Shown piece after piece: positions 40,416 through 63,299 of a stretch of DNA of 64,000 nt; the stretch's first letter is position 1, and the number at the start of each line of letters is the position of its first letter. The translations under genes were made by a program, and so were the position numbers. The notes beneath the pieces are model-generated. The model did no database searches. It saw only the letters and a program-made list of their open reading frames with translations, and was not told where the DNA came from. The DNA comes from a virus, in the IMG/VR virus record IMGVR_UViG_3300005573_000062, positions 62,099-126,098 of that record; one strand, written 5' to 3'.

Positions 40416-41297
40416 TTAGATAATTGTTAGATTTTTTTCCTTTAAGATTTCGTTGCATTTATCTATGATTCTTTTTTTGAATTTTTTTATTTTGAATAGG
40501 AAATCTAGTATTTTTTTATGTCCGTATCTAGCTGTATAGTAGTAGATATATTCTTTTACTGGATTTATGTTTGCTCCACGTTTTATTAGAAATTTGAGTA
40601 GTTCTAGGTCTCCGTTTAATATTGTGGATGCTGTTAGTGAAGTATTATTTTTTACGTTTAATCCATGTTTTACTAGTAATTTAGTTATTTTATTTAGTTT
40701 TGATTCATTTTCTGGTATCGCTTCGTTTCCTTTAATTAGGTGTACGTCTGCCCCTTTTTCTATTAATAACTCAATTATGTTGTAGTGTCCTTGTTTGATT
40801 GCATTTTTGAGAGCGCTTGCATTATATCCGTTGGGATCCGTTCCTTTTTCTAATAGGTATTTGACTATGTTGTATTTTCCTCTTTCTGCAGTTTCCATAA
40901 GTAGGTAGTCGTTGTCCTGTTTAGATCCGCATTTTTCCAGGAATTTTACTACTTCTAGGTGTCCGTTTAAAGCAGCGAATTTCAAAGCTTCGTCGTTTAT
41001 TTCATGTACATCTGCTCCATTTTCCACTAAAAATTTGACTACGTCAAGGTGGCCTCTGCTAGCGGCTATTCTGAGTGGAGCGTTCATTTGAGCATCTATA
41101 TGGGATCCTCGTTTTAGTAGAAATTTTATGATATTTAGATGTCCTGTTTCTGCAGCTATTACTAAAGCCATGTCATGTTCAGCGTGTATGTCTGTTCCTT
41201 TTTCTATTAATTGTTTAATCTTTTTCAGGTTTCCCTGTTTAATTGAATCCCAGAGTAGGTATTTGTTTTCAGTAGTTTGATCTGTGTATTGTTTCAT
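40416..41297 (-). CDS. ankyrin-repeat protein
   Basis: Repeated AL..AA..GHL.VVKFL.E.GADVH. Confidence 0.92.
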   Translation of the reverse strand: MKQYTDQTTENKYLLWDSIKQGNLKKIKQLIEKGTDIHAEHDMALVIAAETGHLNIIKFLLKRGSHIDAQMNAPLRIAASRGHLDVVKFLVENGADVHEINDEALKFAALNGHLEVVKFLEKCGSKQDNDYLLMETAERGKYNIVKYLLEKGTDPNGYNASALKNAIKQGHYNIIELLIEKGADVHLIKGNEAIPENESKLNKITKLLVKHGLNVKNNTSLTASTILNGDLELLKFLIKRGANINPVKEYIYYYTARYGHKKILDFLFKIKKFKKRIIDKCNEILKEKNLTII

Positions 41298-41728
41298 TTT
41301 TGTCTCCTAGAACAGATCGTTTTATTTAAATTTTTTAGGAACATTTGATCTGTTATTTTGCCAAGGATTCCTAGTATATCTATTAGTATATCCTTGCCTT
41401 CCCACTTATCTTTAATTTTTGCTTTTAGCTATATATTTGGCATATTCATAAGTTAACCAAGAGTCTTTAACTACTGGGATTAATAATTCAGTTAATTTTT
41501 TTGTCTCTTCTATTTATAGCATATTTTAATTTCATTTTTTCTCCATAAAGAAATAACGGCCACCAGCTTTATAACATATTGGAACTCGAACAACCTCTTG
41601 ATGTATATAGACTTCTGGAGGATCGTCAACATAAATAATCTTACCTTTTTTAAATTTGTTTTTCATCTTTATATGGCAGCATTTATTACCATATATTGAA
41701 TTCTTACATCTTGAACATCCTAATGTTT

Positions 41729-42259
41729 TCATTTTTCCTCCCTTAAGTATCTTTCTTTTACTTCTTTAGGGTAATTACCCTTATTTAGTAAATACTTAAC
41801 TATTTTCAAATGGCCGTTATTAGCAGACCAGCGTAAAACACACTCTCCTTCTGTATGTATATCAGCTCCTTTGTTAACAAGATATTTAACTACTTCAAGA
41901 TGCCCATTTTCCGAAGCCCACCGTAGGGCAGTTTCATCACCAGCATTAACATTTGCTCCTTCTTTAATAAGCATATCTAAAACCTTTGTATTGAGTATTT
42001 TACCTATATATTTTAACCTAATCTTTTTTGCTTTATATTTTTTGGGCGTCCCTGGATTTTCATAGATTTCGCTTAATGGCTCTACCTCGTAAAGTTTTGT
42101 TCCACAATCTATGAATGTAAGTATATCTTCTTTAGCAAAGTATATCCCTCCAGGTTGGCAATCGCCAGAAGGATTGAACGGTAAAGGGTCTTCGTTTATA
42201 CCTTCTTTATAAACTAAACCGTGGTGTCCTTTCGGGTTTACTATTTTATAGTATTTCAT
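41729..42259 (-). CDS. ankyrin-repeat protein with N-terminal phage domain
   Basis: ALRWASENGHLEVVKYLV repeats; N-terminal GDCQPGGIYF. Confidence 0.88.
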   Translation of the reverse strand: MKYYKIVNPKGHHGLVYKEGINEDPLPFNPSGDCQPGGIYFAKEDILTFIDCGTKLYEVEPLSEIYENPGTPKKYKAKKIRLKYIGKILNTKVLDMLIKEGANVNAGDETALRWASENGHLEVVKYLVNKGADIHTEGECVLRWSANNGHLKIVKYLLNKGNYPKEVKERYLREEK

Positions 42260-47619: not shown

Positions 47620-48234
47620 TTATATTAATCTTTTTAACAAAAACTTTTTTAAACGGTCTTCTAAACTATCGCTGATCTTAAACCTTTTATTCGTATAAAA
47701 ATCTTGGACATAATTATTAATTATATCGAATGAATGCTTTCCAATTATATAACCTGTTTGAGTATAAAAACATCCGAGATTTTTCAAAATATTTAAAACT
47801 TTAGTTTTATCTGGATCTCTTTTTTTCAAATGCTCAAATTTTATATCATTCACTTCTTTCTTAAATTGCTCATTTTCAGTAATATCAATTCGAATTAAAT
47901 CATCAACTAAAGATATACTATTAAACTTTTTTACATCTTCTATACTGCCTTTTACATCTACACATATCCTACTATTTATTCTATTAACCCCTACAATTAG
48001 TAGATCACGCCAAAGAGGATAAACTTTTAATTCATTAAATTCAAGAACGCCCAAATCTAATTTATTAAGATATACCTTATCTTCATCTGTTATAACATAC
48101 AAGTTACTTTTAAATAAGAATGCTTTTCTGATGCTAAATTTTAATTCTTTTCTGATTTCTGATGCATTCTTTCTTACCAGATGTTCAATTACTTCTGCAT
48201 AACCCTTTAGATTAGCGATTTCTTTTAATTTCAT
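47620..48234 (-). CDS. paralog-array hypothetical protein
   Basis: IRKAF..LYVIT.. L.IVGV..V.VKG pattern. Confidence 0.7.
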   Translation of the reverse strand: MKLKEIANLKGYAEVIEHLVRKNASEIRKELKFSIRKAFLFKSNLYVITDEDKVYLNKLDLGVLEFNELKVYPLWRDLLIVGVNRINSRICVDVKGSIEDVKKFNSISLVDDLIRIDITENEQFKKEVNDIKFEHLKKRDPDKTKVLNILKNLGCFYTQTGYIIGKHSFDIINNYVQDFYTNKRFKISDSLEDRLKKFLLKRLI

Positions 48235-48863
48235 ACTGACTCCTTTATTATATATTTTTTTACTCTTTGTTCTATTTCGTCTATTGACATACAGTATTTT
48301 AATGATAATTCACCGACCTTTATATTATTTTTCTTGAATGTTAATAGCCTTTCAAATAAATAGAAGTGGTCTTTATCAGCTTTTATGTTATCTTTAAGGT
48401 ATTCTAATATCTCGTTTATTTTATTACACTTCTCTATTTCTTTTTTATTACTGTTTATTTTATCAATTATTCTTGCTTTTGTATATATATCATGTATCTC
48501 TTTATTATCAGATTTTATCCAATATTCGTTATCATTAATTTTTCTAGTTATATTTAATTCTTCTAATTTCTCTTCTTTACAAATTATTCTTACCTCGTTT
48601 CCAAATACTTTATCTATTACCATTTTTTTATAAGTACGAGATGTAATATCTATCTTATTTTTATCTATAGGATCGAATATCGGAATTTCTAAAACTCGAT
48701 CATCATTTGTAATTAGGAAATACGACTGTTGATTTGAATATAAAGAGTCCCCCATGAAATAATCTTTTACTATATAATCTTTAAGAATTTTATTTGCTTC
48801 ATTTTTATGAGTTCCTTCTGTTGCTATTGCTTTCCCATCTTTAATTGATAGAACTAATTTCAT
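48231..48863 (-). CDS. paralog-array hypothetical protein
   Basis: FLITNDD...YKKMVIDKV. Confidence 0.65.
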   Translation of the reverse strand: MKLVLSIKDGKAIATEGTHKNEANKILKDYIVKDYFMGDSLYSNQQSYFLITNDDRVLEIPIFDPIDKNKIDITSRTYKKMVIDKVFGNEVRIICKEEKLEELNITRKINDNEYWIKSDNKEIHDIYTKARIIDKINSNKKEIEKCNKINEILEYLKDNIKADKDHFYLFERLLTFKKNNIKVGELSLKYCMSIDEIEQRVKKYIIKESV

Positions 48864-49480
48864 AACACTCCTCCCATTAAGTATCTATCTATATACCTAT
48901 CTAAATTTTTTCTTATTACTACACTTTCTCCAACTTCAAAATTATTTTCATCTTTAATTACTACTGTTACTTTCTTATTTATAATTACCCTATTTTTATT
49001 AATATATATACAATCATATTTTTCTAACTCGGGTATTTTTCTTGCTTCTTTCTTATGATAATTGGATATAAGAGGGACTAGAAAAGAGTCATTTACATCT
49101 GTATAAATTTTTATCCCACTATTGGATACTTCTACGTTGTTGTCTGTGTAATAAGGAAGAAGCCGTTTTACTAAGACTGATAGAGTGCCAAGGAGTTCAA
49201 TAGTAATATTATTTACAGAGAAAATTATATATGCATCAATTACAAATCCATCTATTACTAATTTTCTGAAAGTAGGGGGTCGCAGTGTATTGTTTTCTAG
49301 TATATAAAACTTATCTTTTGTTATTACCCCAATGACTTCGTCATAAAAAATAATATCGTAAATAGGTTCTTTAGTTAATTGAGAAAGATCGACTTTTTTA
49401 AGGAACTCTTCTTTTATAATATCATAAAGTCTATTTATTGAAGAAACATTACTGTTTTTTACAATTTGTGTGATTTCCAT
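48860..49480 (-). CDS. paralog-array hypothetical protein
   Basis: IYDII..VITKD. Confidence 0.65.
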   Translation of the reverse strand: MEITQIVKNSNVSSINRLYDIIKEEFLKKVDLSQLTKEPIYDIIFYDEVIGVITKDKFYILENNTLRPPTFRKLVIDGFVIDAYIIFSVNNITIELLGTLSVLVKRLLPYYTDNNVEVSNSGIKIYTDVNDSFLVPLISNYHKKEARKIPELEKYDCIYINKNRVIINKKVTVVIKDENNFEVGESVVIRKNLDRYIDRYLMGGVL

Positions 49481-49488
49481 TTTTCCTC

Positions 49489-50145
49489 CTATGAAAGTCC
49501 TAATTTTATAATTGCTTTCTTAAGTCTCTCTTCGAATTTTTCATCTCTGATTACTTTTATAGTTCTGTCTATTAAGAAACTATTAGATCGAACTTTTACT
49601 TCGTGATTTCCGTAATATAACGTATGACTGTATACATAGAATCCGAATTTTTTTATTATATCTTTTTCTTGTTGGGTAAGTCCCAAAAAATCGCCGTGTA
49701 TATCTATTGATAAAGGTTGTAATTCCTTCTTTATTATATAATTGTTTGTGATGTCCAGAAGCAATCCGCTTAATGTATCATAATATATTGGAACTTCAAG
49801 AGCGATAATGTCTTTTAAATCTCCTTTTACTGACAGATATATTTTCTTATCTTCTTTATATATGCCTTCTACTATTAAATTTTTATACAATCGATAGGAC
49901 AGATCAAATATTTCTGTTTCAAAGCCAGTACTATTTTTTTCAAGTATAATTTCTTTGGCTTCGTTGTCTTGTGTAATGATATATAAATATTGTTTGTATA
50001 TAAATGCTTTTTTTATTGTATATCCTTTTAGTTTATCTTTCAATTTAGAAGCATATATTCTAATTAACGCTTTACTTGTGTACGAGTCTTCTGTATTTAT
50101 CAATACACTAGTATTTTTTAAACACTCTTCATATAATTTATTCAT
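49489..50145 (-). CDS. paralog-array hypothetical protein
   Basis: IKKAF..LYIITQD..LYKNLIVEG..LSVKGDLKDI. Confidence 0.7.
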   Translation of the reverse strand: MNKLYEECLKNTSVLINTEDSYTSKALIRIYASKLKDKLKGYTIKKAFIYKQYLYIITQDNEAKEIILEKNSTGFETEIFDLSYRLYKNLIVEGIYKEDKKIYLSVKGDLKDIIALEVPIYYDTLSGLLLDITNNYIIKKELQPLSIDIHGDFLGLTQQEKDIIKKFGFYVYSHTLYYGNHEVKVRSNSFLIDRTIKVIRDEKFEERLKKAIIKLGLS

Positions 50146-50804
50146 ACCACGTCTCCTTTTATTAATTCAGGAATTCTTTTTATGTGTATGGATTTATTTG
50201 GTCCTCCTTTTATTATTTTTGCAGTTTTTCTACTACTATTAATTTTGAATGTATAATTATTTGTCCAGATTTTAGGATGAGCGTATACATATTTTAATCC
50301 TTTTAGATGTTCTGCAATATCTTGATTGTTTTCGTTGTTTACTCCTGTTATTTCTGGCAACAGTATGTCATCTTCTGACGAAATGTCAAATGTAATTTTA
50401 TATGTTATTTCTTTTATTTCTGCTTTTAAATTTAGATTTTTTATGGTTGTCAATACTCTTTCTGGAGTTCCATGTATCCCTATTCTAAATTTATCTCCAA
50501 CTTTATCGACACGCACTATTGCAAGATTTTTAATAACTGGGATATCGTTCGTCCTGTTTATACTTGGAGCAATATTAAAACGATCATTGTAATATAATTT
50601 CCAGACTGCTTTTTTTGTTATGATTATCGTTGTCATGTCGTCTATAATGATGTCAATTATGCCCTCTTTTTTAGGTTGATCTAATTTATCGAGATTTTTT
50701 AAGATCATTTCTTTAAATTTATATTTGCGATAAATTTCAATTGCTTCTGTCTGATTCGAAGTTTGTTTGGATATTTCTTTAAAGATCTCCGTTACTTCGT
50801 CCAT
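50142..50804 (-). CDS. paralog-array hypothetical protein
   Basis: IIDII..IIITK..KNLAIVRV..IGIHG. Confidence 0.65.
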   Translation of the reverse strand: MDEVTEIFKEISKQTSNQTEAIEIYRKYKFKEMILKNLDKLDQPKKEGIIDIIIDDMTTIIITKKAVWKLYYNDRFNIAPSINRTNDIPVIKNLAIVRVDKVGDKFRIGIHGTPERVLTTIKNLNLKAEIKEITYKITFDISSEDDILLPEITGVNNENNQDIAEHLKGLKYVYAHPKIWTNNYTFKINSSRKTAKIIKGGPNKSIHIKRIPELIKGDVV

Positions 50805-51226
50805 GGCTCCTCCTTTTCTAATTCTTTTATTAAATCGAATTCTGTTTGTATTTCTAATTCGTAAAAAGAGTATACCGTAATTTCAAGATGTGGATAAATA
50901 GGATGTCGTTTGAGTCTATTTATTATTCTTAAAACGTTTCCTTCGAACTCGTATACTATTTTTCCATCTTTTTCAACTTTTTCTACTGCGAATCCATTTG
51001 TTATCTTTTTCTTTTCACATATTGGACCATCAGGATATCCGGCATATTTATAGTCCTTCGACAAGAGTATAAAAACGAAATCATTTAAAAGGCGTTCTGG
51101 ATATATATCGTAAATTTTTCCGTGTTCTTTTCTGAATTTTATTATTTTTTCCTTATTATTCAAAAGTAGTTGTTTAAATTTAGCTATTGCTAAATCGTTA
51201 TATATTAGATCAGGATTCCAATACAT
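50792..51226 (-). CDS. paralog-array hypothetical protein (short)
   Basis: IYDIY..ILLSKD..FAVEKV..YEFEG. Confidence 0.6.
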   Translation of the reverse strand: MYWNPDLIYNDLAIAKFKQLLLNNKEKIIKFRKEHGKIYDIYPERLLNDFVFILLSKDYKYAGYPDGPICEKKKITNGFAVEKVEKDGKIVYEFEGNVLRIINRLKRHPIYPHLEITVYSFYELEIQTEFDLIKELEKEEPWTK

Positions 51227-51239
51227 TTTAGCCTCCTCT

Positions 51240-51905
51240 TCATTGAGAGATTAAGAATTTTTTGATTTTATACTCTATATTTTCTTCTTTAGGTTCTTTT
51301 ATCTTATATTCATTTATTGATATGTTTCTATTATCATTTTGCCCTGTGATAAGAATTTCGTCTGTTCCATTGAATGAGCAGTGATATTTACCGTATAAAT
51401 ACATATACAATCCATATCCGTGTATTTTAAGATCAAATTTCTTGAGAATTTTAAATGTCATTTTTATTTTGTGCATTTCAATTTCATATACTCTGTTTAG
51501 TAAAAGATCATTTATTTCCTTTTGAACTTTTTTGTCATCTGTTATATCTATTTTTACCTCATATTCATCTATTTTGTATGGAAGATTTAATGCTTTTATG
51601 TCATCTATTCTTCCATTTACGACTGCAATTGTTCTTTTTTCTTTTAGGACTGTTATTATTCTTAGATCTTTATATAGATAATAATCGACGTATTTATAAT
51701 CATCTTTGGGCTTATCTATTGCTATTTGTATTAAATCATCTTTGCTAGTAATTGCAAACCAATAGTATCTATCTCTAAATATCTTTCTAATTTTGTGCCA
51801 CTCCATAAACAGTCCAAGTTCTTTTAAACTTGTTTGAGAGATACCCATTGCTTCTATTTTTTCGTTATTAATCACTTCTTTCATTAATAGGTTCCATTTA
51901 TTCAT
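51240..51905 (-). CDS. paralog-array hypothetical protein
   Basis: IRKIF..FAITSKD..LYKDLRI..VVNGRIDDI. Confidence 0.7.
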   Translation of the reverse strand: MNKWNLLMKEVINNEKIEAMGISQTSLKELGLFMEWHKIRKIFRDRYYWFAITSKDDLIQIAIDKPKDDYKYVDYYLYKDLRIITVLKEKRTIAVVNGRIDDIKALNLPYKIDEYEVKIDITDDKKVQKEINDLLLNRVYEIEMHKIKMTFKILKKFDLKIHGYGLYMYLYGKYHCSFNGTDEILITGQNDNRNISINEYKIKEPKEENIEYKIKKFLISQ

Positions 51906-51914
51906 TAATTCCTC

Positions 51915-53084
51915 CTATTCCGGAATTTCTACGACTAATCCGAAGGGAGGTTTTATTTCATTCCCTTCGTAGGTAACCCAGATCGTTTTAGGTTTTGGGG
52001 TCCAGTCTGGGTATGTGCCTGCTAGATCTGAAAGATAGATTACAAGATCTGCTTTTAGTTGTTCTGCTCTTTCAAAAGCAGGTATAAAAGAGGTTCCACC
52101 TCCTATTTCTATTGATTTTATTTTATTGACAGAAGAGAGGGGATATTCCCTATATATTTGATCGTGTACTTCTAATACTTTTACTTCTTTTTCCTCTTTG
52201 AGAATTCCTCTTAGTTCTCCTATCAATTTTTCGAGCATTGAGTACATCGACCCTGAGACATCTAAGGCTACTACTACGTTTGTCCCTTTATTTTTTATTC
52301 TACCTGCTAGAAGATCTGTTGTTCTATTTTCTCTACTCCAACTTCTAGATCTTCTGAGAGGTTTGCTATTCTTGATGTACCTTTTCAGGATAGCTCTCCA
52401 GTTGCATTTACTTATCATTTCAAGGATCTTCTTTCCTAGTTCAGGTTGACCTCCTGTTCCATACTTTCTTATACCTTCTTCTAAGCGATCTTTTATTTTA
52501 TCTGCAAGAGTAGGATCTATTTCTTGTATGTCAATCTCAATTTCCTTTCCTTCCTCATCTGTTATCTTTATTCTTTTCTTACTGGTATTTCCTATTGTGA
52601 TTGTTATTGTTTGGAATTTGAAATTGTTATTTCTAAGGAGTTTTATATAGTCTTCCATCGCTAGACCTTTAGGAAATTTTTTGAACATACCATATCCTGG
52701 TGCGATCCCCACTTCATTAGTTAGAAGAAGTGTTAATTGACCTTCTATCATGGTGTTTATCGCGAGGTCTGCTGCAACGTTATCTAGTTCGTGATTTCCG
52801 GTTCCTCTTCCGTTGTGCACCAGGAGATGGTGCATCAACTCATGTGTTAATATACCAGTCATTTCTCTCATGGGCAGATATTTTAGGAAAGTTTCACTGA
52901 TGTATATTGTAGTGTCGTTTATTGCTGCAGTATCTACCTCGTTTCCTATTTTCTCTTTGAAGTCTAGAATCGTTACTGCAAATCCTGGATTGTCTTTGAG
53001 GTAGAATGCTTTTACTGTCTCCCATTTTTTCTGAAGATCTTCTGTTGTTGGGGGACCGAATATTTTTTCTAATATTTCTTTCAT
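51915..53084 (-). CDS. DUF2201-type metallopeptidase (HExxH) + vWA domain protein
   Basis: TAAIN, LTHELMH, NVAADLAIN, DVSGSM MIDAS, GGGTSF, YLSD. Confidence 0.9.
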   Translation of the reverse strand: MKEILEKIFGPPTTEDLQKKWETVKAFYLKDNPGFAVTILDFKEKIGNEVDTAAINDTTIYISETFLKYLPMREMTGILTHELMHHLLVHNGRGTGNHELDNVAADLAINTMIEGQLTLLLTNEVGIAPGYGMFKKFPKGLAMEDYIKLLRNNNFKFQTITITIGNTSKKRIKITDEEGKEIEIDIQEIDPTLADKIKDRLEEGIRKYGTGGQPELGKKILEMISKCNWRAILKRYIKNSKPLRRSRSWSRENRTTDLLAGRIKNKGTNVVVALDVSGSMYSMLEKLIGELRGILKEEKEVKVLEVHDQIYREYPLSSVNKIKSIEIGGGTSFIPAFERAEQLKADLVIYLSDLAGTYPDWTPKPKTIWVTYEGNEIKPPFGLVVEIPE

Positions 53085-53085
53085 T

Positions 53086-54081
53086 TTATCCCTCCTTGTT
53101 TATTTTTTGGAATATAGGGAAAAGTAGATTTGTGAGCTCCTTGTTGTTGAGGATTTTAGATCTTACATCCTCTTTCAATTTCTTTACGAATGCTACTTTC
53201 ATCTCTTCTCTGAGGTCTGGTATTAATCTAAGGGTTAGTCTTATTAGTTCTTTTGTAATCTTTTCATTAAGAGCTAATGCAGCTTGATTGACGACATCTA
53301 ACTGTTTTTCAGGAGACATTTCTTTTATCCTGTATTTCTCGTAGTTTTCAATGAGATCTTTAATTTTGACTCTTTCGAATCTCTCCTTAGCATATCCCTC
53401 GAAGGTGTATGCAACCTCAGTTCCCAAGATCCCTTTGGTGTATTTTCCTTCGAAGTACCCTAGTTCGAGAAGATTCGAGACTCTTTCCCAGCCTCTTGGA
53501 GTAGGAGCTATCTTATCTGCCTTATTATTAGGGCAGAAATTTTCTGGGAACTGAGTTAAGAAAGATATGACTACATCGTTTATTCCAGCTTTGACTGCCC
53601 ATCGTTTCCAATCCTCTAGATCTGGTTCTACCTCTATTGGAACTACTCTATCCCAGAGAGCAGGATCCAGATCACCTACTTTATAAACCCCATTGTCAGG
53701 GTTGATTGCTATAGCGATTCTGACTTTGTCATCTAGTTTAAATCCGTGGATGCTTCTATATAACGGAATCTCCATGAATGCGTTTAAGGTCTCTGATGAG
53801 GCTCTATTTAGTTCGTCGAAGAAGAGTCCGTCAGAATCGAACCAGAAAGGTTTTAGCCATTCTACTTTGTTGATTGTAGTGCTCCTTTGAGGCATACCTC
53901 CTACGTCCTCTGGGAGTACTTGAGCGAGCATTATCTGATTTATCTTTTGACACCCTACCTCCTTTAGGGCGTCTAAGGTGATCGCTGATTTGCCGATGCC
54001 ATGCTTTCCTATTAGCATTGGAACAGTTTTATTCTGCTTGAGGAGGTCAAGCAGGAATTTTTTGGTTTCTTCTATTTTCAC
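53086..54081 (-). CDS. MoxR-like AAA+ ATPase
   Basis: GKHGIGKS, LFFDELNRA, AINP, LDPALWDR, TPRGWE. Confidence 0.92.
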   Translation of the reverse strand: MKIEETKKFLLDLLKQNKTVPMLIGKHGIGKSAITLDALKEVGCQKINQIMLAQVLPEDVGGMPQRSTTINKVEWLKPFWFDSDGLFFDELNRASSETLNAFMEIPLYRSIHGFKLDDKVRIAIAINPDNGVYKVGDLDPALWDRVVPIEVEPDLEDWKRWAVKAGINDVVISFLTQFPENFCPNNKADKIAPTPRGWERVSNLLELGYFEGKYTKGILGTEVAYTFEGYAKERFERVKIKDLIENYEKYRIKEMSPEKQLDVVNQAALALNEKITKELIRLTLRLIPDLREEMKVAFVKKLKEDVRSKILNNKELTNLLFPIFQKINKEG

Positions 54082-54097
54082 TTTACCTCCTTTCCTT

Positions 54098-54123
54098 GCC
54101 TGTTCTCAAAGAATCAGGACTTA
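54098..54123 (-). repeat. bulged-A leader hairpin, copy 1
   Basis: TAAGTCCTG-A-TTCT-TTG-AGAA-CAGGC, then RBS. Confidence 0.8.
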
Positions 54124-54131
54124 CAGAAATT

Positions 54132-54683
54132 TTATTGTGCATTGATTTTGATTACTGCTTTCTTGATTCGTTCCTCTAATATTTTTTCTAGGTTTGGGGT
54201 ATTCAACTTATAGTACTCCTCGTCTCCGTCTTCATCGTACATCTTTAGAGTTACCTCTTCGATGTAATCATATATATACAATGCTGCATTTTCGAATACA
54301 GGTCTATATACCGATGATGGGTTTGTAGCACTGTCATTCCAATCTTCAATTACGAGGGTGTCGAACTTCTCAGAGAGGTACTTTATTATTTCTCTGTGCC
54401 TTTCAACCATTACTTTCTTTAGCATATTCTCTAGCATTGCTTTTTTCAAGGTTGGAACTATTGGATCATCTAATGGAATGTCTGCATACCACTCTGATAT
54501 CCCGCTCATAGTGAATTCATTATTTGCGAAGGCGCCAAAGATCTTATATTGTGGGAATTCTCGTTTGAATTCCTCTAAATCATTTTCAGCACCTTTGAAG
54601 TGGAAGTAATGTTTTTCTTCCATATTGTCAGTAGATACAAAGTCGTACGACACAATGCAATTTTCTATTAATTCTTTATTCAT
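54132..54683 (-). CDS. acidic hypothetical protein, paralog of 54739
   Basis: F.FKG...L.EF; DDP.VP.LKK. Confidence 0.72.
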   Translation of the reverse strand: MNKELIENCIVSYDFVSTDNMEEKHYFHFKGAENDLEEFKREFPQYKIFGAFANNEFTMSGISEWYADIPLDDPIVPTLKKAMLENMLKKVMVERHREIIKYLSEKFDTLVIEDWNDSATNPSSVYRPVFENAALYIYDYIEEVTLKMYDEDGDEEYYKLNTPNLEKILEERIKKAVIKINAQ

Positions 54684-54700
54684 TTATCCTCCATTTCCTT

Positions 54701-54730
54701 GCCTGCTCTTATTGAAAGAGTCAGGACTTA
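54701..54730 (-). repeat. bulged-A leader hairpin, copy 2
   Basis: TAAGTCCTG-A-CTCTT-TCAAT-AAGAG-CAGGC. Confidence 0.8.
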
Positions 54731-54738
54731 TAGGAAAA

Positions 54739-55278
54739 CTACTTTTCTATTATTGCTTTCTTTATAATGTTGACGACTTCTTCAATTGGAGTATCTTCGT
54801 CGATCTCAATGTCGTCTCCGACCATAAAAGTTGGAGCGTCAAAGAGGTCGGGGTCTACAGCGAAGACGAATCCTTCTATGTGAGGATCGATCGCTATTTG
54901 GAACCCTTCTTCTGAATACTCTTTGATTTCCACACGAAAGTTGTTTTTGAGAGCCTTTAGCATTTCAGCTCTCTTTTTATTTTTTTCTTCTAGCTTTTTG
55001 ATGAAGAAGTCGAGAGCCATTTTTTTCAACTCAGGGATTCTAGGATCATCCTTATTCAGCAAGATGAATCCTTCTTCTCCCCCATAGAAAGATATTTCTT
55101 CGTTGTCTTCTACTGAAGCACCATGAGGAAATAATTTCCAGTCATATACCTCATCGAAGAATTTCTTCAAGGCTTTTTGAGAGCCTTGCATTCTGAATAT
55201 TACTTTCCCGTCTTTTTCTTGATCTAGCAGGGCGACGGGATATATCCCTGTTTTCTTTAGCTCGTTTTCTAAGTCCAT
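54739..55278 (-). CDS. acidic hypothetical protein, paralog of 54132
   Basis: FRMQG...LKKFF; DDPRIPELKK. Confidence 0.72.
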   Translation of the reverse strand: MDLENELKKTGIYPVALLDQEKDGKVIFRMQGSQKALKKFFDEVYDWKLFPHGASVEDNEEISFYGGEEGFILLNKDDPRIPELKKMALDFFIKKLEEKNKKRAEMLKALKNNFRVEIKEYSEEGFQIAIDPHIEGFVFAVDPDLFDAPTFMVGDDIEIDEDTPIEEVVNIIKKAIIEK

Positions 55279-55288
55279 TTGGACCTCC

Positions 55289-55681
55289 TTATTTTATTCT
55301 AATTATTCGAGTCCTTATGACCTTGATCCCAGGGATGATGATTCCGTTCTTTATATCCTGGGAGATTTTGCCTCTGTCAGGGGAGCAATACTCTCTAGGA
55401 ACTGCTCTTTCGCTTTCGATGACATATCCTTGGTGACTTACTACTGAATGGTGGACTCCAAGAGGAGGTTCCCCAAAGTCTCCATACATAGAGAGAAGAC
55501 TTGTCTTGAGAACTTCTATTCTATTTTCCACATTCTTTTTCTCTTCTTCGAGTTTATTTAACTCCTCGAAGAAGCCTTTATACTTCTCCTCAAGAAGTTT
55601 CTTTTCGAGCTCCTTTTCTTTTTTAGCGATCGATGCTCTGAAGAGCTGGGCATCTATTTTTCTGATTTCGTTCTCGTTCAC
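55289..55681 (-). CDS. siphovirus Gp157-like protein
   Basis: Coiled coil plus VIES..AVPREY..PDRGKI...IKNG..IPG. Confidence 0.6.
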   Translation of the reverse strand: MNENEIRKIDAQLFRASIAKKEKELEKKLLEEKYKGFFEELNKLEEEKKNVENRIEVLKTSLLSMYGDFGEPPLGVHHSVVSHQGYVIESERAVPREYCSPDRGKISQDIKNGIIIPGIKVIRTRIIRIK

Positions 55682-55700
55682 TTTTTTCCTCCATCTCCTT

Positions 55701-55726
55701 GCCTGCTCTCAAAGAGTCAGGTCTTA
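55701..55726 (-). repeat. bulged-A leader hairpin, copy 3
   Basis: TAAGACCTG-A-CTCT-TTG-AGAG-CAGGC. Confidence 0.8.
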
Positions 55727-55730
55727 CAGG

Positions 55731-55882
55731 ATTCCGCTCTAATAGACCGGCCCTCTTTAAACTCTAGAGGACCGGTCCAAGAACGGAGGTCTAGATTTGA
55801 ATGAGGACTCCCTCAAAGAATCTTCACTTAAATCCAGACTTGGAGGGGAGACTTACTCACTCCCCTCCTTCTGGAAATCAGG
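55731..55882 (-). ncRNA. candidate multi-stem structured RNA or RNase III-type processing element
   Basis: Three long stems; most mismatches become G-U pairs only on the minus strand. Confidence 0.55.
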
Positions 55883-56197
55883 CTATTTTACTTCAAAAGT
55901 CCACTTTTTAACATCCACAAGAGGACGCTGCTCAGGCAATGCATAGAGCGCTGGGGCTCTATGTGAGTCCTTTGTCTTGAATTTTATAATCTCTCCGCTC
56001 TGTCTCAAAGCCTCTAGGAGACCCCAACCCTCTGAAGGACTGATTCCCAATCTTGCCTCAACAAGAACCATCTGAGGTCCAGTGAGGGGCTTACCCTCTT
56101 TCTTTACTTCCTCTAGGAGAGCTAACGCTCTCTCTAACTGCTCTTCCGCTCTCTTTTCTTTTGCGACCTCTTCTGCAGTCTTTTCTTTTATTTCCAT
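55883..56197 (-). CDS. hypothetical (possible winged-helix) protein, first gene of the minus block
   Basis: GGAGG RBS; LGIS..E...LL..L...GEI. Confidence 0.65.
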   Translation of the reverse strand: MEIKEKTAEEVAKEKRAEEQLERALALLEEVKKEGKPLTGPQMVLVEARLGISPSEGWGLLEALRQSGEIIKFKTKDSHRAPALYALPEQRPLVDVKKWTFEVK

Positions 56198-56218
56198 ACT
56201 ACCTCCGTTCTACCTCCG

Positions 56219-56254
56219 GCCTGCCGCTCTAGGAAGGACAACGGTCAGGACTTA
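56219..56254 (-). repeat. bulged-A leader hairpin, copy 4
   Basis: TAAGTCCTG-A-CCG-loop-CGG-CAGGC. Confidence 0.7.
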
Positions 56255-56260
56255 GGGAGG

Positions 56261-56493
56261 AAAATTTAAATTTATTTATTTTTTTAATTTTTTTTAAATT
56301 TTAAATTTTTTAATTTATTTTTTTAAATATATTTTTAATTTTTTTTTAATTTTTTTAAATTTTAAATATATATTAAAAATTTAATATATATTTAATTTAT
56401 ATATATATATTATATATAAATTTATAAAATAAAATTTTTTAATTTTAAAAATAAATAATTTTAATATAAAAAATTTTTTATTATTAAAAAAAT
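56261..56493. other. A/T-only tract with inverted repeats (candidate origin or genome end)
   Basis: About 230 bp without G/C; 16-bp inverted repeat 56362-56395; lies at the divergence point of transcription. Confidence 0.6.
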
Positions 56494-56952
56494 GAACAAA
56501 CCCCCCTCTCTCCCGGAAATCCCCCACCACTTTTTAGATTCCCGGTCCAGATTTACGGGGGTATCCTTTTTTTTTTATTCGTGGTTTTAAAGTGTTTTAG
56601 ATTGGGCCGATTGTTTTTAATATTTTGATTCTCCTGGCCAAAGTTAAGTAGAATGTTTTTAGATTGCGGGAGCATTCCTTTTTAGATTCGTTGTTTTAAG
56701 TGTTTTCGGTTTTATTTTCAGATTGGTTCTGGTTTTTTATTTATTTTGGTTCCCCCCCCCCGGGAAAAAAAGTTAGAGATTTTAGAATATGTGTTAGGGT
56801 GTGTCCGGTGTTGTAAAAGATATAAGGATGATAATTTATATAAAAAGTGATAGAAAGTTAATCCGGGTGAACCCAGATTAACCTGGGGTATGTATTTGGT
56901 GTTGTTTGGCTGGAGGAGTTGAAGAAATATTTTTGTTAGTTTAAAAAAGGGG

Positions 56953-58409: not shown

Positions 58410-58724
58410 ATGTTTACATTAAAAGAAGAATTATTGAAGCGAGCAAAAAATCTAGCTAAAAAAAGAAATTCAAAAAATCTACAATCTTCTTTTGAATATA
58501 ACTTATTAAATCTCGTGGAACTTGCATACGATTCTGGCTTTCATGATGGGTGGTATGAAGGGATAGAAAAATGGAGTAATACAAATTCTATGAAATTTAA
58601 ATTAAAACAAACATTAAAAATATTTAATAGAATTAATTGGCGCAATGTATTCGCATGGATTATTTTACCTTTAATACCATGGGGACTCATTATTTTTTTG
58701 ATAATAAAGAGGTTCTTCAAATGA
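58410..58724 (+). CDS. C-terminally anchored membrane protein
   Basis: TM helix near the C-terminus. Confidence 0.6.
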   Translation: MFTLKEELLKRAKNLAKKRNSKNLQSSFEYNLLNLVELAYDSGFHDGWYEGIEKWSNTNSMKFKLKQTLKIFNRINWRNVFAWIILPLIPWGLIIFLIIKRFFK

Positions 58725-59185
58725 TTCATTACACCAAAGGAAATATTCTTGAAAGTTCTGCCAAAGTGTTGGTTAACCCTGTCAATACTGTGGGAGTAAT
58801 GGGGAAAGGATTAGCTCTACAATTCAAAAAAGAATATCCATTTAATTTTTCAGAGTACAAAGAAGTATGCAAAGAAAAAAAATTAAATATAGGCGGATAT
58901 TTAGCTGTAAAAGAGAAAAATAAAATAATATTAAATATTCCTACAAAAGAAGATTGGAGGAATCCTTCAAAATATGAATATGTTGAAGCAGGATTAAAAG
59001 CTATATCAAAATTTTTAAAGGAACGACCATTTGGCGATAATGATCCTGAAGCTAAAATTGACTCCATTGCCATCCCTCCACTAGGGTGCGGGAATGGAGG
59101 ATTAGAATGGGAGAAAGTAAAACAGTTAATAGAATCATATTTAGGTAATATAAATTTAAATATTTTGGTATACGTTCCAAATTGA
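58721..59185 (+). CDS. DarG-like macrodomain (ADP-ribosyl hydrolase)
   Basis: GNILES, LVNPVNTVGVMGKGLALQFK, PTKEDW, AIPPLGCGNGGLEW; start at ATG 58721. Confidence 0.92.
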   Translation: MIHYTKGNILESSAKVLVNPVNTVGVMGKGLALQFKKEYPFNFSEYKEVCKEKKLNIGGYLAVKEKNKIILNIPTKEDWRNPSKYEYVEAGLKAISKFLKERPFGDNDPEAKIDSIAIPPLGCGNGGLEWEKVKQLIESYLGNINLNILVYVPN

Positions 59186-59845: not shown

Positions 59846-60079
59846 ATGGAAAAAGTATTATATAAAAGTCAGGTCTTATCTATGTTACAAACTTATTATG
59901 GGAAAAACATTGTATTAATAGATGACAAAGAATTACGAGATTGGTTTGAAAATTCAAATTATAAAAAATTAATAATCAAAGACAAAATGGGGGATGAAGA
60001 AACGATAGTTGATAAAGATCATTTTGCTGACTTTATGAGAGAACAGATAAATATATACAGACTAGTAACTGGAGAATAA
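59846..60079 (+). CDS. hypothetical protein, near-identical to 61411-61644
   Basis: 77-aa duplicate. Confidence 0.75.
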   Translation: MEKVLYKSQVLSMLQTYYGKNIVLIDDKELRDWFENSNYKKLIIKDKMGDEETIVDKDHFADFMREQINIYRLVTGE

Positions 60080-62076: not shown

Positions 62077-62289
62077 ATGAAATCCAATAAATCTAAATTC
62101 GTAACAATTTCATTTCCTAATATAGACAATGAAAAAATGAAATATATGATAGAGGCAGAACAAGCTTTAATAAAAGCAGGAATCCATTTTGATACAGGAT
62201 ATGATAGTTGTGAGAAAAGAAGGGATTGGTTTTTTGATTGGTCGTTAAAAGGAGCAATTGTAAAAGAACAAAAAAATAATCTGTCATGA
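62077..62289 (+). CDS. small conserved phage protein
   Basis: GIHFDTG...RDW..DWSLKG. Confidence 0.65.
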   Translation: MKSNKSKFVTISFPNIDNEKMKYMIEAEQALIKAGIHFDTGYDSCEKRRDWFFDWSLKGAIVKEQKNNLS

Positions 62290-63299
62290 GGGTTAACATG
62301 GATATTAATTTAGCCACAATTCAAATTATTAAAGACATTCAACCAATCCCTAATGCTGATTCAATTGAAGTAGCAACTGTTCTTGGTTGGAAAGTAGTTG
62401 TTAAAAAAGGAGAATTTAAAATAGGGGATAAGATTATCTATTGTGAAATAGATAGTTGGATTCCGAATAATATTGCTCCTTTTCTTTCTAAAGGGCAATC
62501 ACCAAAAGAATATAATGGAATTCTTGGAGAAAGATTAAAGACCGTTAAATTAAGAGGACAAATATCACAAGGATTAATATTGCCTTTATCCATTCTGCCA
62601 AATAAAGAATATAAAGAAGGGGATGATGTTACCCAAGAATTAGGGATATTGAAATGGATAAAACCTGTCCCTATTAATATGCGTGGTTTAATAAAAGGAG
62701 ATTTTCCATCGTTTATACCTAAAACAGATGAAATAAGAATACAATCAAAACTTGAACTTTTAAAAGAAATAAAAGGAAAAGATATTTATGTTACCCAAAA
62801 AATTGATGGCACATCTGCTACCTATTATATCAAAGATGGAAATTTTGGAGTGTGTAGTAGAAATTTAGAATTAAAAGAAGGGGATAATATATATTGGAAT
62901 ATTGCTAAAAAGTATGATATAGAGAATAAATTGAGAAAATTAAATAAAAATATTGCTTTACAAGGAGAAATTGCAGGACCGGGGATACAAAAGAATCCAA
63001 TGAAATTATTTGAAGTAGGTATATTCTTTTTTAATGCATTTGACATAGATTCATATAAGTATTACAATTACACCCAATTAAATAATTTACTGATGCAACT
63101 AGAATTGCAAATGGTTCCATTGGTATCTATGTATTATGCTTTGCCTATTGAGTGGAGTATTGATATTATGTTAAAAATGGCTGAAATAAAATATGACTCA
63201 GGGGCGATAGGCGAAGGAATTGTTGTGCGTACTATGGATAACCCTTTGATCTCTTTTAAAGTGCTAAATAATAAATATTTATTAAAAAACGATGAATAG
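62286..63299 (+). CDS. RNA ligase (DRB0094/Rnl5-type, N-terminal OB fold)
   Basis: PIPNADSIE, YCEIDS, LRGQISQG, PKTDE, KIDGTS, CSRN, QGE, EGIVVR, SFKV. Confidence 0.92.
   Translation: MRVNMDINLATIQIIKDIQPIPNADSIEVATVLGWKVVVKKGEFKIGDKIIYCEIDSWIPNNIAPFLSKGQSPKEYNGILGERLKTVKLRGQISQGLILPLSILPNKEYKEGDDVTQELGILKWIKPVPINMRGLIKGDFPSFIPKTDEIRIQSKLELLKEIKGKDIYVTQKIDGTSATYYIKDGNFGVCSRNLELKEGDNIYWNIAKKYDIENKLRKLNKNIALQGEIAGPGIQKNPMKLFEVGIFFFNAFDIDSYKYYNYTQLNNLLMQLELQMVPLVSMYYALPIEWSIDIMLKMAEIKYDSGAIGEGIVVRTMDNPLISFKVLNNKYLLKNDE

Follow-up and report, generated by a model that had tools for sequence, protein, structure and literature searches.

The structured leaders that control early phage genes are in most cases restricted to one lineage and accompanied by a protein of their own. 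The MS2 and PP7 operators are hairpins whose loop residues are essential and which include the start codon. In phage T7, RNase III signals (R0.3 to R1.3) lie between early genes, each a coaxial double helix of about two turns broken by an internal loop, and RNase III needs no conserved loop sequence; SP82, a relative of SPO1, has RNase III sites of this T7-like type. Known small ribozymes combine a conserved core with variable helices, are associated with phages, occur in few copies per genome and have no linked protein. In a kink-turn, tandem sheared G-A pairs follow a bulge of three nucleotides. Among DNA sites, integron attC lies between gene cassettes and is built from an outer and an inner helix, the latter with an extrahelical base, together with an unpaired spacer and a terminal structure that varies. 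It is described as a folded single-stranded DNA site (PMC5737381). Hairpins for Aca1/Aca2 are reported from the 5' UTRs of phage acr-aca operons, where they provide translational control (PMC13551039). The survey of Weinberg et al. 2010 lists a GUCCY-hairpin candidate from Bacteroidetes and Proteobacteria, marked doubtful as an RNA and given there without an Rfam accession (PMC2864571).

The locus considered here lies in a 64-kb stretch of DNA from a hot-spring phage, the whole of which was analysed and is called the window below. Four minus-strand copies of TAAG(T/A)CCTG-A-(stem-loop)-CAGGC were found exactly where the original prediction had placed them (56254-56219, 55726-55701, 54730-54701 and 54123-54098). 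Its reading of the copies was also accurate: the upper stems are CCG(U)/(G)CGG, CUCU/AGAG, CUCUU/AAGAG and UUCU/AGAA, the loops differ among copies, and the A bulge is found in 4/4. A GGAGG had been noted within about 10 nt of every copy. It lies 7-8 nt past CAGGC in copies 2-4; in copy 1 one GGAGG lies 1 nt past CAGGC and the real SD follows after 12 nt.

The element is larger than first described. Each copy has, in addition, an outer helix made of a pyrimidine run 5' of TAAG and a purine block 3' of CAGGC, which gives an element of about 40 nt running from P1 through an internal loop, P2 and a bulged A to P3. P1, the outer helix (3-6 bp), encloses an asymmetric internal loop with 5' R-UAAG-W opposite 3' C-A; P2 is CCUG/CAGG; and P3 is a variable stem, often with a GNRA cap. 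Together, P1, P2 and P3 come to about 11-15 bp. The copies and the surrounding genes are listed below, with bit scores from covariance models R1 and R2.

56263..56480, minus strand: stretch of extreme A+T richness on the 5' side of copy 1 that contains several sigma-70-like matches (e.g. a -10 ending at 56298); judged by these consensus matches, the probable promoter region of the operon
56211..56262, minus strand: motif copy 1, in the operon 5' leader (R1 44.4 bits, R2 39.5 bits); P1 56260-56256/56217-56213 (CCUCC/GGAGG), loop C-UAAG-U 56255-56250, P2 56249-56246/56223-56220, bulged A 56245, P3 56244-56241/56227-56224 with a long loop; then SD GGAGG 56206-56202 and ATG 56197-56195
55883..56197, minus strand: first operon gene, 104 aa, no Pfam or PHROG match; copy 1 ahead
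55693..55734, minus strand: motif copy 2 (R1 53.7 bits); P1 55731-55728/55699-55696 (UCCU/AGGA), UAAG 55726-55723, P2 55721-55718/55705-55702, bulged A 55717, P3 55716-55713/55709-55706 with loop UUG; then SD 55692-55688 and GTG 55681-55679
55289..55681, minus strand: Sipho_Gp157 / Mu Gam-like gene (PF05565, E 3.4e-11; phrog_253); copy 2 ahead
54739..55278, minus strand: 179-aa gene without the motif, its SD directly after the upstream stop codon; paralogue of the gene at 54132..54683
54693..54738, minus strand: motif copy 3 (R1 55.4 bits); P1 54737-54732/54699-54694 (UUUCCU/AGGAAA), UAAG 54730-54727, P2 54725-54722/54705-54702, bulged A 54721, P3 54720-54716/54710-54706; then SD 54692-54688 and ATG 54683-54681
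54132..54683, minus strand: 183-aa gene, function unassigned; copy 3 ahead
54091..54131, minus strand: motif copy 4 (R1 53.6 bits); P1 54129-54125/54096-54092 (UUUCU/AGGAA, one G-U pair), UAAG 54123-54120, P2 54118-54115/54102-54099, bulged A 54114, P3 54113-54110/54106-54103 with loop UUG; then SD 54090-54086 and GTG 54081-54079
53086..54081, minus strand: AAA_5-type ATPase (phrog_1297); copy 4 ahead
51915..53084, minus strand: DUF2201_N metallopeptidase-like and VWA-like protein, its start abutting the ATPase stop codon; without the motif

The pattern CCTGAN{6,30}CAGGC occurs four times in the window, where chance alone would give 0.32 occurrences, and 0/100 shuffles of the window reach four. 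A regular-expression search of the 126,098-bp genome found the TAAG head with a short hairpin in these four copies only; two extra CCTGA..CAGGC matches have gaps of 38-39 nt and no TAAG, and a lone TAAGACCTG at window positions 59870-59878 has no hairpin. The covariance-model scan that had been proposed returned four genomic copies and further loci, and the comparison with Rfam no family. R1 run over the whole genome at E<=10 recovers the same four copies and nothing further; in the window with filters off, the next best match scores 11.7 bits against at least 44 bits for the four copies.

Other loci add comparative evidence. In the relative L002, copy 2 has an orthologue (L002:193-232), and copy 4 has one at L002:1703-1742 in which a P2 pair has changed from G-C to U-A in a compensatory manner with the A bulge kept; L102, which was found by the covariance model alone, carries C-G at that same pair. 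The junction orthologous to copy 3 lacks the motif in L002, so copy 3 is dispensable there. Searching viral contigs with the ATPase gene gave no close relatives of the window, and BLASTN of the motif region against phage records gave no match. L001 and L031 were set aside as chance matches.

The proposed helices are supported by covariation. For the six seed copies, 93.4% of 76 cells pair, 8/13 pairs have changed on both sides and 0/500 shuffles equal this value; for 46 distinct copies, 89.9% of 536 cells pair, 9/12 pairs show compensatory changes on both sides, 0/500 shuffles reach the observed pairing and slid controls stay at or below 47.4% paired. One P1 column (8/69) alone contains CG 11, GC 10, AU 4, UA 4 and UG 4 times. 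The A bulge is present in 46/46 distinct copies and in all 14 rows that were not pattern-selected, a distinction that matters since much of the apparent invariance is imposed by the search patterns and by model selection of copies; the 14 rows outside pattern selection keep the core, six of them being the model seeds and eight found by those models. P3 loops vary freely in length and sequence. Where tetraloops cap P3, GNRA occurs in 10/25 against roughly 1 in 32 expected, an enrichment that reads as an RNA-type signature in these sequences. Pairing statistics do not identify the folded strand, because G-U and A-C cells are equally frequent (13 vs 12, no strand asymmetry). A kink-turn was rejected on inspection of the alignment, as the loop strands R-UAAG-W / C-A allow no tandem G-A.

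Pattern scans and covariance models together yielded 52 copies (46 distinct) at 33/34 loci. These come from MAG contigs and from phages and prophages unrelated to one another, and Patescibacteria, Bacillota and Ignavibacteriales are among the named hosts; locus L050 is from the isolate genome of Cohnella thermotolerans DSM 17683. The core is almost letter-identical across phages of different phyla, with G+C from 27% to 57%. Downstream genes are heterogeneous (SSB, exonuclease, ATPase, primase and many of unassigned function), and some genomes have tandem copies, of which the first lacks an SD of its own. Searches of five host genomes returned already known copies only and no host-native one, and did not find the motif before ordinary host genes, which speaks against a general ribosome enhancer, since hosts could make use of one too. 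Targeted searches were likewise negative: the covariance model has no match in phage SPO1, nothing above 12.4 bits in the five Firmicutes phages with the SSB closest to that of L050, and nothing above 12.1 bits in the DUF3150, VWA and ssb modules of two conjugative plasmids, one of type IncC and one from Geobacter. A single motif copy, compared by BLAST with 50,697 phage records, had no match among them, although BLAST is ill suited to a motif in separate pieces.

At least two CRISPR arrays contain spacers against the motif. The hairpin core without its UAAG head (CCTGACC..GGCAGGCA), which has at least 120 matches in viral contigs, was considered and set aside: among the matches listed, TAAGW stood upstream in 0/117 new loci and nine loci had an SD-like string, which looks like chance. 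The matches are taken as chance in G+C-rich DNA, and no variant members came from them.

By script, 46/52 copies of the element lie 2-16 nt ahead of the start codon of an ORF of at least 40 aa, and two more have a visible start codon. The end of P1 is 0-3 nt from the 16S-complementary stretch in 40 of the 48 copies that have one (51 analysed), and in all copies the motif is oriented like the downstream gene. Near-consensus sigma-70 promoters end 17-42 nt upstream of at least eight copies, and others follow terminator-like T runs; because of these promoters and T runs directly upstream, the element would often stand at the 5' end of a transcript, and the consensus promoters immediately upstream would place the motif inside transcripts.

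These observations bear on whether the element works as DNA. It might be a single-stranded DNA hairpin serving as a recombination or cassette-boundary site (attC/REP-like), or a loading site for RNA polymerase or antitermination. Its general layout is attC-like (P1 would correspond to the R box, the loop to the unpaired spacer, the bulge to the extrahelical base and P3 to the variable terminal structure), it sits at gene boundaries, it comes and goes between close relatives, as with copy 3, and the G-U and A-C counts lack strand asymmetry. However, SD spacing is tightly constrained, the motif is always co-oriented with the gene, GNRA tetraloops are enriched and BLASTP found no shared recombinase or other protein; for antitermination, one signal would suffice, yet the operon has four copies. 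We consider this reading highly improbable. A cassette-boundary recombination site, which the original prediction had offered as an alternative, is disfavoured by the fixed SD spacing and the GNRA enrichment.

A second question is whether the element hides or exposes the SD. In L048 and L059, the 3' strand of P1 appears to double as the SD. In most copies the SD is outside P1, and P1 strands of the GCCG type are unable to pair with GGAGG. The accessibility predicted for the SD is 0.61 for native and 0.56 for shuffled sequences, with the native value higher in 25/42. The element could in principle be a small riboswitch in which the internal loop and bulged A bind a metabolite or ion reporting host state, thereby stabilising P1 and tuning initiation. 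Its compact and highly conserved core with variable helices would suit such a role, as would its abutting the SD, the tandem copies in some genomes and the apparent use of P1 as SD in L048 and L059. Against it, the genes downstream differ widely in function, an alternative fold that would generally sequester the SD is not visible, predicted SD accessibility is not clearly changed and the motif was not found before ordinary host genes; a riboswitch is thus highly improbable in our view. Other positional ideas were unsupported or were rejected. An SD insulator is without support from accessibility (0.61 vs 0.56, where the regular expression may sometimes take the P1 purine strand as the SD). P1 does not as a rule stack coaxially on the SD/anti-SD helix, since the gap is 0-1 nt in only 20/48 copies. 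The idea that the motif's UAA terminates the upstream gene was rejected, as a frame of 60 codons or more ends there in only 1/45 copies.

No catalogued RNA family was found to match the element. With Rfam 15 at gathering scores, the whole window gave no matches, and 13 related loci gave only a group II intron elsewhere in L050; at E<=10, the region 53900-56700 gave chance-level matches only, none on a motif copy, and L050:4980-5180 (201 nt) gave none. The families covered include hammerhead, twister, pistol, hatchet, riboswitch classes, STAXI and phage leaders, none of which matched. In the literature, the core string was found only in unrelated primer and p53 papers, and searches by descriptive terms returned no account of the motif. 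The earlier view of an undescribed cis-regulatory RNA motif is thus supported, computationally, by the lack of an Rfam match or of a literature description in these searches, by covariation, and by the co-oriented position just 5' of the SD.

The search for a partner was made at the protein level. BLASTP found no protein family common to more than 3/31 motif loci, a result that fast-evolving small proteins could escape, nor any common to more than 2/6 motif-bearing viral records; the complete 34-kb record G004 shares no protein with the other motif-bearing viral records by the same method. One candidate role is that of an operator for a phage-encoded RNA-binding repressor or activator, comparable to Aca1/Aca2, the MS2 coat protein or T4 RegA. 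Here, ORF 55883-56197 and the NusG paralog would be candidates, and the first operon gene indeed encodes a small protein of unassigned function. Position in the initiation region and architecture resemble the Aca-bound hairpins as described (PMC13551039). But no protein family is shared by more than three of the 31 loci or two of the six viral records, and the same core sequence is found in phages of different phyla, which leaves an operator of this kind improbable. The two local candidates, which had been proposed for binding tests, are not favoured because unrelated motif-bearing phages share no protein family with this phage. Mimicry of rRNA was also tried and rejected: the E. coli sequence of 16S helix 21 (the S8 site) shares short strings only, and R2 against the E. 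coli rrn operon, filters off, reaches at best 6.5 bits (E 3).

Taken together, we hold with somewhat more belief than doubt that the four hairpins are members of an mRNA leader family, widespread and uncatalogued, on phages, prophages and other mobile DNA, acting in cis on the downstream cistron. The analysis shows the sequence family, its covarying structure and where it stands with respect to the SD and start codon. From there we infer that the element acts as RNA and on initiation: the near-invariant loop and bulge, held by covarying helices, would form a recognition surface at the translation initiation region, and the cis effect would come about through 30S loading, mRNA processing or 5'-end stability. 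Because no protein family travels with the element, the partner would most likely be supplied by every bacterial host (the 30S subunit, a ribosomal protein or a universal RNase), or the RNA would act by itself. In this phage, it would equip every independently initiated cistron of an early, higher-G+C ATPase/VWA operon.

Cleavage deserves separate mention. As an RNA processing or stabilising site, the element would be cut in or near its internal loop by a host endoribonuclease or as a self-cleaving ribozyme, releasing the cistron with a 5' hairpin ahead of the SD. Copies are repeated between cistrons of one operon, and the conserved core, variable peripheral helices, phage link, few copies per genome, occasional tandems and absence of a linked protein make a small-ribozyme-like pattern; independence from host phylum fits self-cleavage or a universal RNase. 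On the other hand, no Rfam ribozyme family matches, and many copies are at the predicted 5' ends of primary transcripts, with no upstream cistron to separate. A coaxial helix of about 11-15 bp is also short for RNase III, which would not explain the conserved sequence. Processing is unlikely in our view. A bolder version of the leader family, distinctly unlikely as we see it, is a new autonomous RNA device used by phages across phyla, either a self-cleaving ribozyme of about 40 nt or a 30S-docking module beside the SD. The ribozyme would free each cistron with a protected 5' hairpin; the docking form would recruit or hold the 30S subunit, as a bacterial counterpart of viral IRES-like enhancers. 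Either would explain a core kept in unrelated phages without a protein and unused by hosts.

For the leader family as a whole, a near-identical core across host groups with no shared protein suggests that it is most likely read either by some conserved part of the bacterial cell or by the RNA on its own. Identifying that reader could reveal a general route to privileged or timed translation for mobile DNA. In addition, the element might serve as a compact, host-independent part for expression control, and it provides a sequence marker of phage early/replication modules.

How, then, does the element compare with the known systems? The likeness to attC lies in the general layout. Compared with attC, the motif described here is smaller, lacks core sequences of the attC type, keeps a fixed SD distance and carries GNRA loops; its hairpin base is a covarying CCN/NGG helix rather than attC-type core sites. 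Going by its name, the GUCCY-hairpin would have GUCCY as a conserved sequence, and GUCCU occurs in the core of the present motif, a comparison made with the table listing of that candidate (PMC2864571).

Among RNA signals, the T7 sites R0.3-R1.3 are likewise repeated hairpins that resemble one another, contain an internal loop and lie between early cistrons, immediately before the next ribosome-binding site. They are roughly twice as long, the ~11-15 bp here falling short of about two turns, and unlike them many copies of the present motif stand at the predicted 5' ends of primary transcripts. The MS2 and PP7 operators, too, place a small hairpin with an adenine bulged from its stem at the translation initiation region. 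Of their features, the single bulged purine is found here, while the conserved loop and the start-codon overlap are not: loops vary, the recognition features are in the internal loop below the bulge and the start codon is 15-25 nt downstream.

The Aca hairpins, as far as their published description goes, resemble the present motif in being short, in belonging to early phage operons and in lying just past the transcription start, upstream of the start codon; the two also agree in a lower stem that is conserved, one or two bases left unpaired and an upper stem that covaries (PMC13551039). In that description, Aca motifs are lineage-specific and the cognate HTH gene is always in the same operon, whereas the present motif crosses phyla and has no shared partner gene by BLASTP. 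Unlike the Aca hairpins described there, it also has an extra internal loop and an outer helix, and it abuts the SD.

The original prediction placed four copies of the pattern TAAG(T/A)CCTG-A-[stem-loop]-CAGGC on the minus strand, and all four are present with exact coordinates, each ahead of a gene:

56254-56219, minus strand: copy 1, before a 104-aa gene without a family match
55726-55701, minus strand: copy 2, before a Sipho_Gp157 / Mu Gam-like gene
54730-54701, minus strand: copy 3, before a 183-aa gene with no assigned function
54123-54098, minus strand: copy 4, before an AAA_5 ATPase gene

A single contig of 126,098 bp (30% G+C) makes up the virus record, and the window covers its second half; two runs labelled hot springs metagenome contain DNA of this record. 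CCTGAN{6,30}CAGGC occurs four times in the window against 0.32 expected, a number reached by 0 of 100 shuffles, and a TAAG head followed by a short hairpin is found only at these four sites in the whole 126,098-bp record. R1, a covariance model of the element, recovers the same four copies and nothing else at E<=10. With filters off, the copies score at least 44 bits with R1 and the next best match in the window 11.7 bits.

Folding each copy with its flanks exposes an outer helix, P1, which the original prediction had not described. Pyrimidine runs ahead of TAAG (UCCU, UUUCCU, UUUCU and CCUCC) pair with a purine block immediately after CAGGC (AGGA, AGGAAA, AGGAA and GGAGG), so that the full element consists of P1, an asymmetric internal loop (5' R-UAAG-W opposite 3' C-A), P2 (CCUG/CAGG), the bulged A and P3 with a variable loop. 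In the window copies, the working Shine-Dalgarno (SD) sequence, GGAGG, is outside P1 on its 3' side, with 4-6 nt between it and the start codon.

This fold is supported by covariation. Of 76 cells in the six seed copies, 93.4% are paired, 8 of 13 pairs show two-sided changes, and none of 500 shuffles reaches the observed covariation. In an alignment of 46 distinct copies, which was fitted to the model, 89.9% of 536 cells are paired, two-sided changes occur in 9 of 12 pairs (86 cells) and again 0/500 shuffles equal the observed value. Sliding the 3' partners lowers pairing to 25-47%. Pairing reaches 99% of cells in P2 and P3 taken together and 77% in P1, whose closing position shows four Watson-Crick types. 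Many of the 46 were picked by patterns fixing TAAGWCCTGA(C) and (G)CAGGCA, so the invariance of these letters is partly built in. Fourteen rows free of pattern selection (six seeds from which the models were built and eight found by those models) keep U, A, A, G (G in 13/14), CCUG (its G in 13/14), the bulged A, CAGG (its C in 13/14) and the 3' C (13/14). GNRA sequences make up 10 of 25 P3 tetraloops, a share consistent with the element folding as RNA; G-U and A-C cells (13 vs 12) do not separate the strands by count.

Sampling of the family was pattern-driven: a degenerate pattern of the conserved halves and a second pattern, combined with the models. The first pattern retrieved 28 viral contigs, seven of which hold nine matches of at least 26 bits to R1; one of these (L031) was dropped as a chance match. 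The second retrieved further viral contigs and 37 contigs of species-representative genomes, of which 18 carry 21 matches of at least 28 bits to a second model, R2. At E<=0.01, a combined search recovers 52 matches (46 distinct) across 33 of the 34 loci. Among the named hosts are Saccharibacteria, Paceibacterota, Doudnabacteria, other Patescibacteria, Desulfosporosinus, Cohnella thermotolerans, Tissierellaceae, Ignavibacteriales and a Deltaproteobacteria MAG, and locus G+C spans 27% to 57%. Whole viral records carry one or two copies; a Saccharibacteria contig (L047) and a viral contig (L084) have four or five. Model searches of samples of 151 genomes detected the motif in two genomes of the class of genome G006 and three of the phylum of genome G008, each count including a centre genome already known as a carrier; the three new carriers were found without any pattern. 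Five host genomes held no copies beyond those already known, which suggests that the motif belongs to mobile DNA, with no host-native version found.

In a Thermodesulfovibrionales MAG (L055:98-137) and a Clostridia MAG (L076:3928-3968), the motif is flanked by identical direct repeats and thus lies inside a CRISPR spacer. That is, hosts have acquired spacers against the conserved leader.

Placement relative to genes is strict in strand and position. A script places 46 of the 52 copies 2-16 nt ahead of an ORF that encodes 40 aa or more, and two further copies (L067 and L033:1553) have a visible SD and start codon. Of the other four rows, two are the CRISPR spacers and two are the leading copy of a single tandem pair, recorded from both L084 and L085, which represent one phage. 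From the end of P1 to the stretch complementary to the 16S tail, the gap is 0-3 nt in 40/48 copies. At least eight copies (L014 twice, L046 twice, L062, L063, L069 and L071) have a near-consensus sigma-70 promoter that ends 17-42 nt upstream; several copies come after terminator-like T runs, and others sit 8-25 nt past the preceding gene's stop codon. These contexts point to a leader that stands at the start of a transcript in some cases and between cistrons in others. Tandem copies about 10 nt apart (L084:74-169 and L047:5892-5991) directly follow a terminator-like hairpin and T run, with an SD only behind the second copy.

In the operon of the window, the two genes lacking the motif begin directly at or after the preceding stop codon (a DUF2201 metallopeptidase/VWA gene begins immediately next to the AAA_5 ATPase stop codon), so each independently initiated cistron has a copy. 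Adjacent paralogues at 54132-54683 and 54739-55278 have a copy only before the downstream one. The operon forms a G+C island of 38-39% against 26-29% in its surroundings. Taken over window 52000-56000 and L002:1-4000, the island has 38-41% G+C in a genome of 26-30%, both here and in the relative, which suggests acquisition from a different phage lineage. Upstream of the operon lies a highly A+T-rich region holding matches that resemble promoters.

Comparison with one related contig, L002 (ATPase 86% identical), shows a copy before the Gp157-like gene, where the motif UAA is the upstream gene's stop codon. The copy before the ATPase gene has CCUU/AAGG as its P2, where U-A replaces G-C as a compensatory change, and it keeps the A bulge; the L002 counterpart of the third motif-bearing gene has no copy. 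A spacer of about 150 nt before copy 2 is missing in L002. Further observations concern this neighbourhood:

55735-55882, minus strand: that spacer, between the first gene and copy 2, with two strong hairpins (9-bp G+C-rich stem, 55868-55842; ~12-bp stem, 55778-55745); it may be an inserted small element, sRNA or terminator
L002:642-1703: the homologue of 54739-55278 reads TAG in frame at a position that is TGG in the window, and that of 54132-54683 is fragmented; gene decay, assembly errors or recoding may account for this
47620-51905, minus strand: run of paralogous ~205-220-aa genes without family match (47620-48234, 49489-50145, 51240-51905 and neighbours), conserved as one block in L002
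57011-58009, plus strand: TnpB/Cas12f-like gene (TNB domain, E 1.1e-25), divergent to the operon
56480-56600: G+C-rich structured block just upstream of that gene, beside the A+T-rich stretch
40416-42259 (minus), 58637-59185 (plus) and 62286-63299 (plus): near-operon genes, which include two putative ankyrin-repeat proteins and a putative RNA ligase (translations read by eye) and a Pfam-confirmed macro-domain protein

Across the family, downstream genes are varied yet typical of early, replication or recombination modules. They encode SSB (four loci: L024, L050, L078 and L100), AAA_5 ATPases (window, L002 and L047), a YqaJ exonuclease, a CobT-like VWA protein, a DnaG-type primase, DUF3150, a Gp3-like recombination directionality factor, DUF7666/Imm5-like and DUF7447 proteins, and many small proteins with no assigned function. 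IncC conjugative plasmids (L222, pRMH760; see also L047) group AAA ATPase, VWA/CobT-like, DUF3150, SSB and exonuclease genes, families found behind the motif in different phages, as one block; within it, no motif match exceeds 12.1 bits.

When the ORFs of 31 motif loci were all clustered by BLASTP, no family occurred in more than three loci, and six motif-bearing viral records, one a complete 34-kb phage, had none common to more than two. By this measure of co-occurrence, the motif appears to have no recognisable dedicated protein companion.

Judged from sequence, the element would act as an RNA at the initiation region, and its conserved loop and bulged A would have to be read by some partner. 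The motif has no phage protein that accompanies it, and it occurs in hosts of different phyla; the most likely reader is therefore either a component that all hosts share, such as the 30S subunit, a ribosomal protein or an RNase, or else the RNA itself. We lean, by a little over even chances, towards a leader that acts in cis to control how the downstream cistron is initiated or processed, through a host or intrinsic partner, whether as enhancer, repressor site or processing site. In thermodynamic predictions, no simple unmasking of the SD is seen. The main argument against a plain ribosome enhancer is the motif's absence from host genes, which keeps self-cleaving or phage-specific readings alive.

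The motif had been put forward as undescribed, and it has no match in Rfam 15. T7 RNase III signals, MS2-type operators, nut/put sites, attC sites, kink-turns and small ribozymes each fail at least one defining feature, as these systems are commonly defined, and rRNA mimicry is not supported. PMC2864571 lists a GUCCY-hairpin candidate. The Aca1/Aca2 RNA hairpins (PMC13551039) are lineage-specific and accompanied by a regulator gene; unlike them, the present motif occurs across phyla, with no shared partner gene found by BLASTP. They are nonetheless the closest published analogues found, with a layout and position in common with the present motif.
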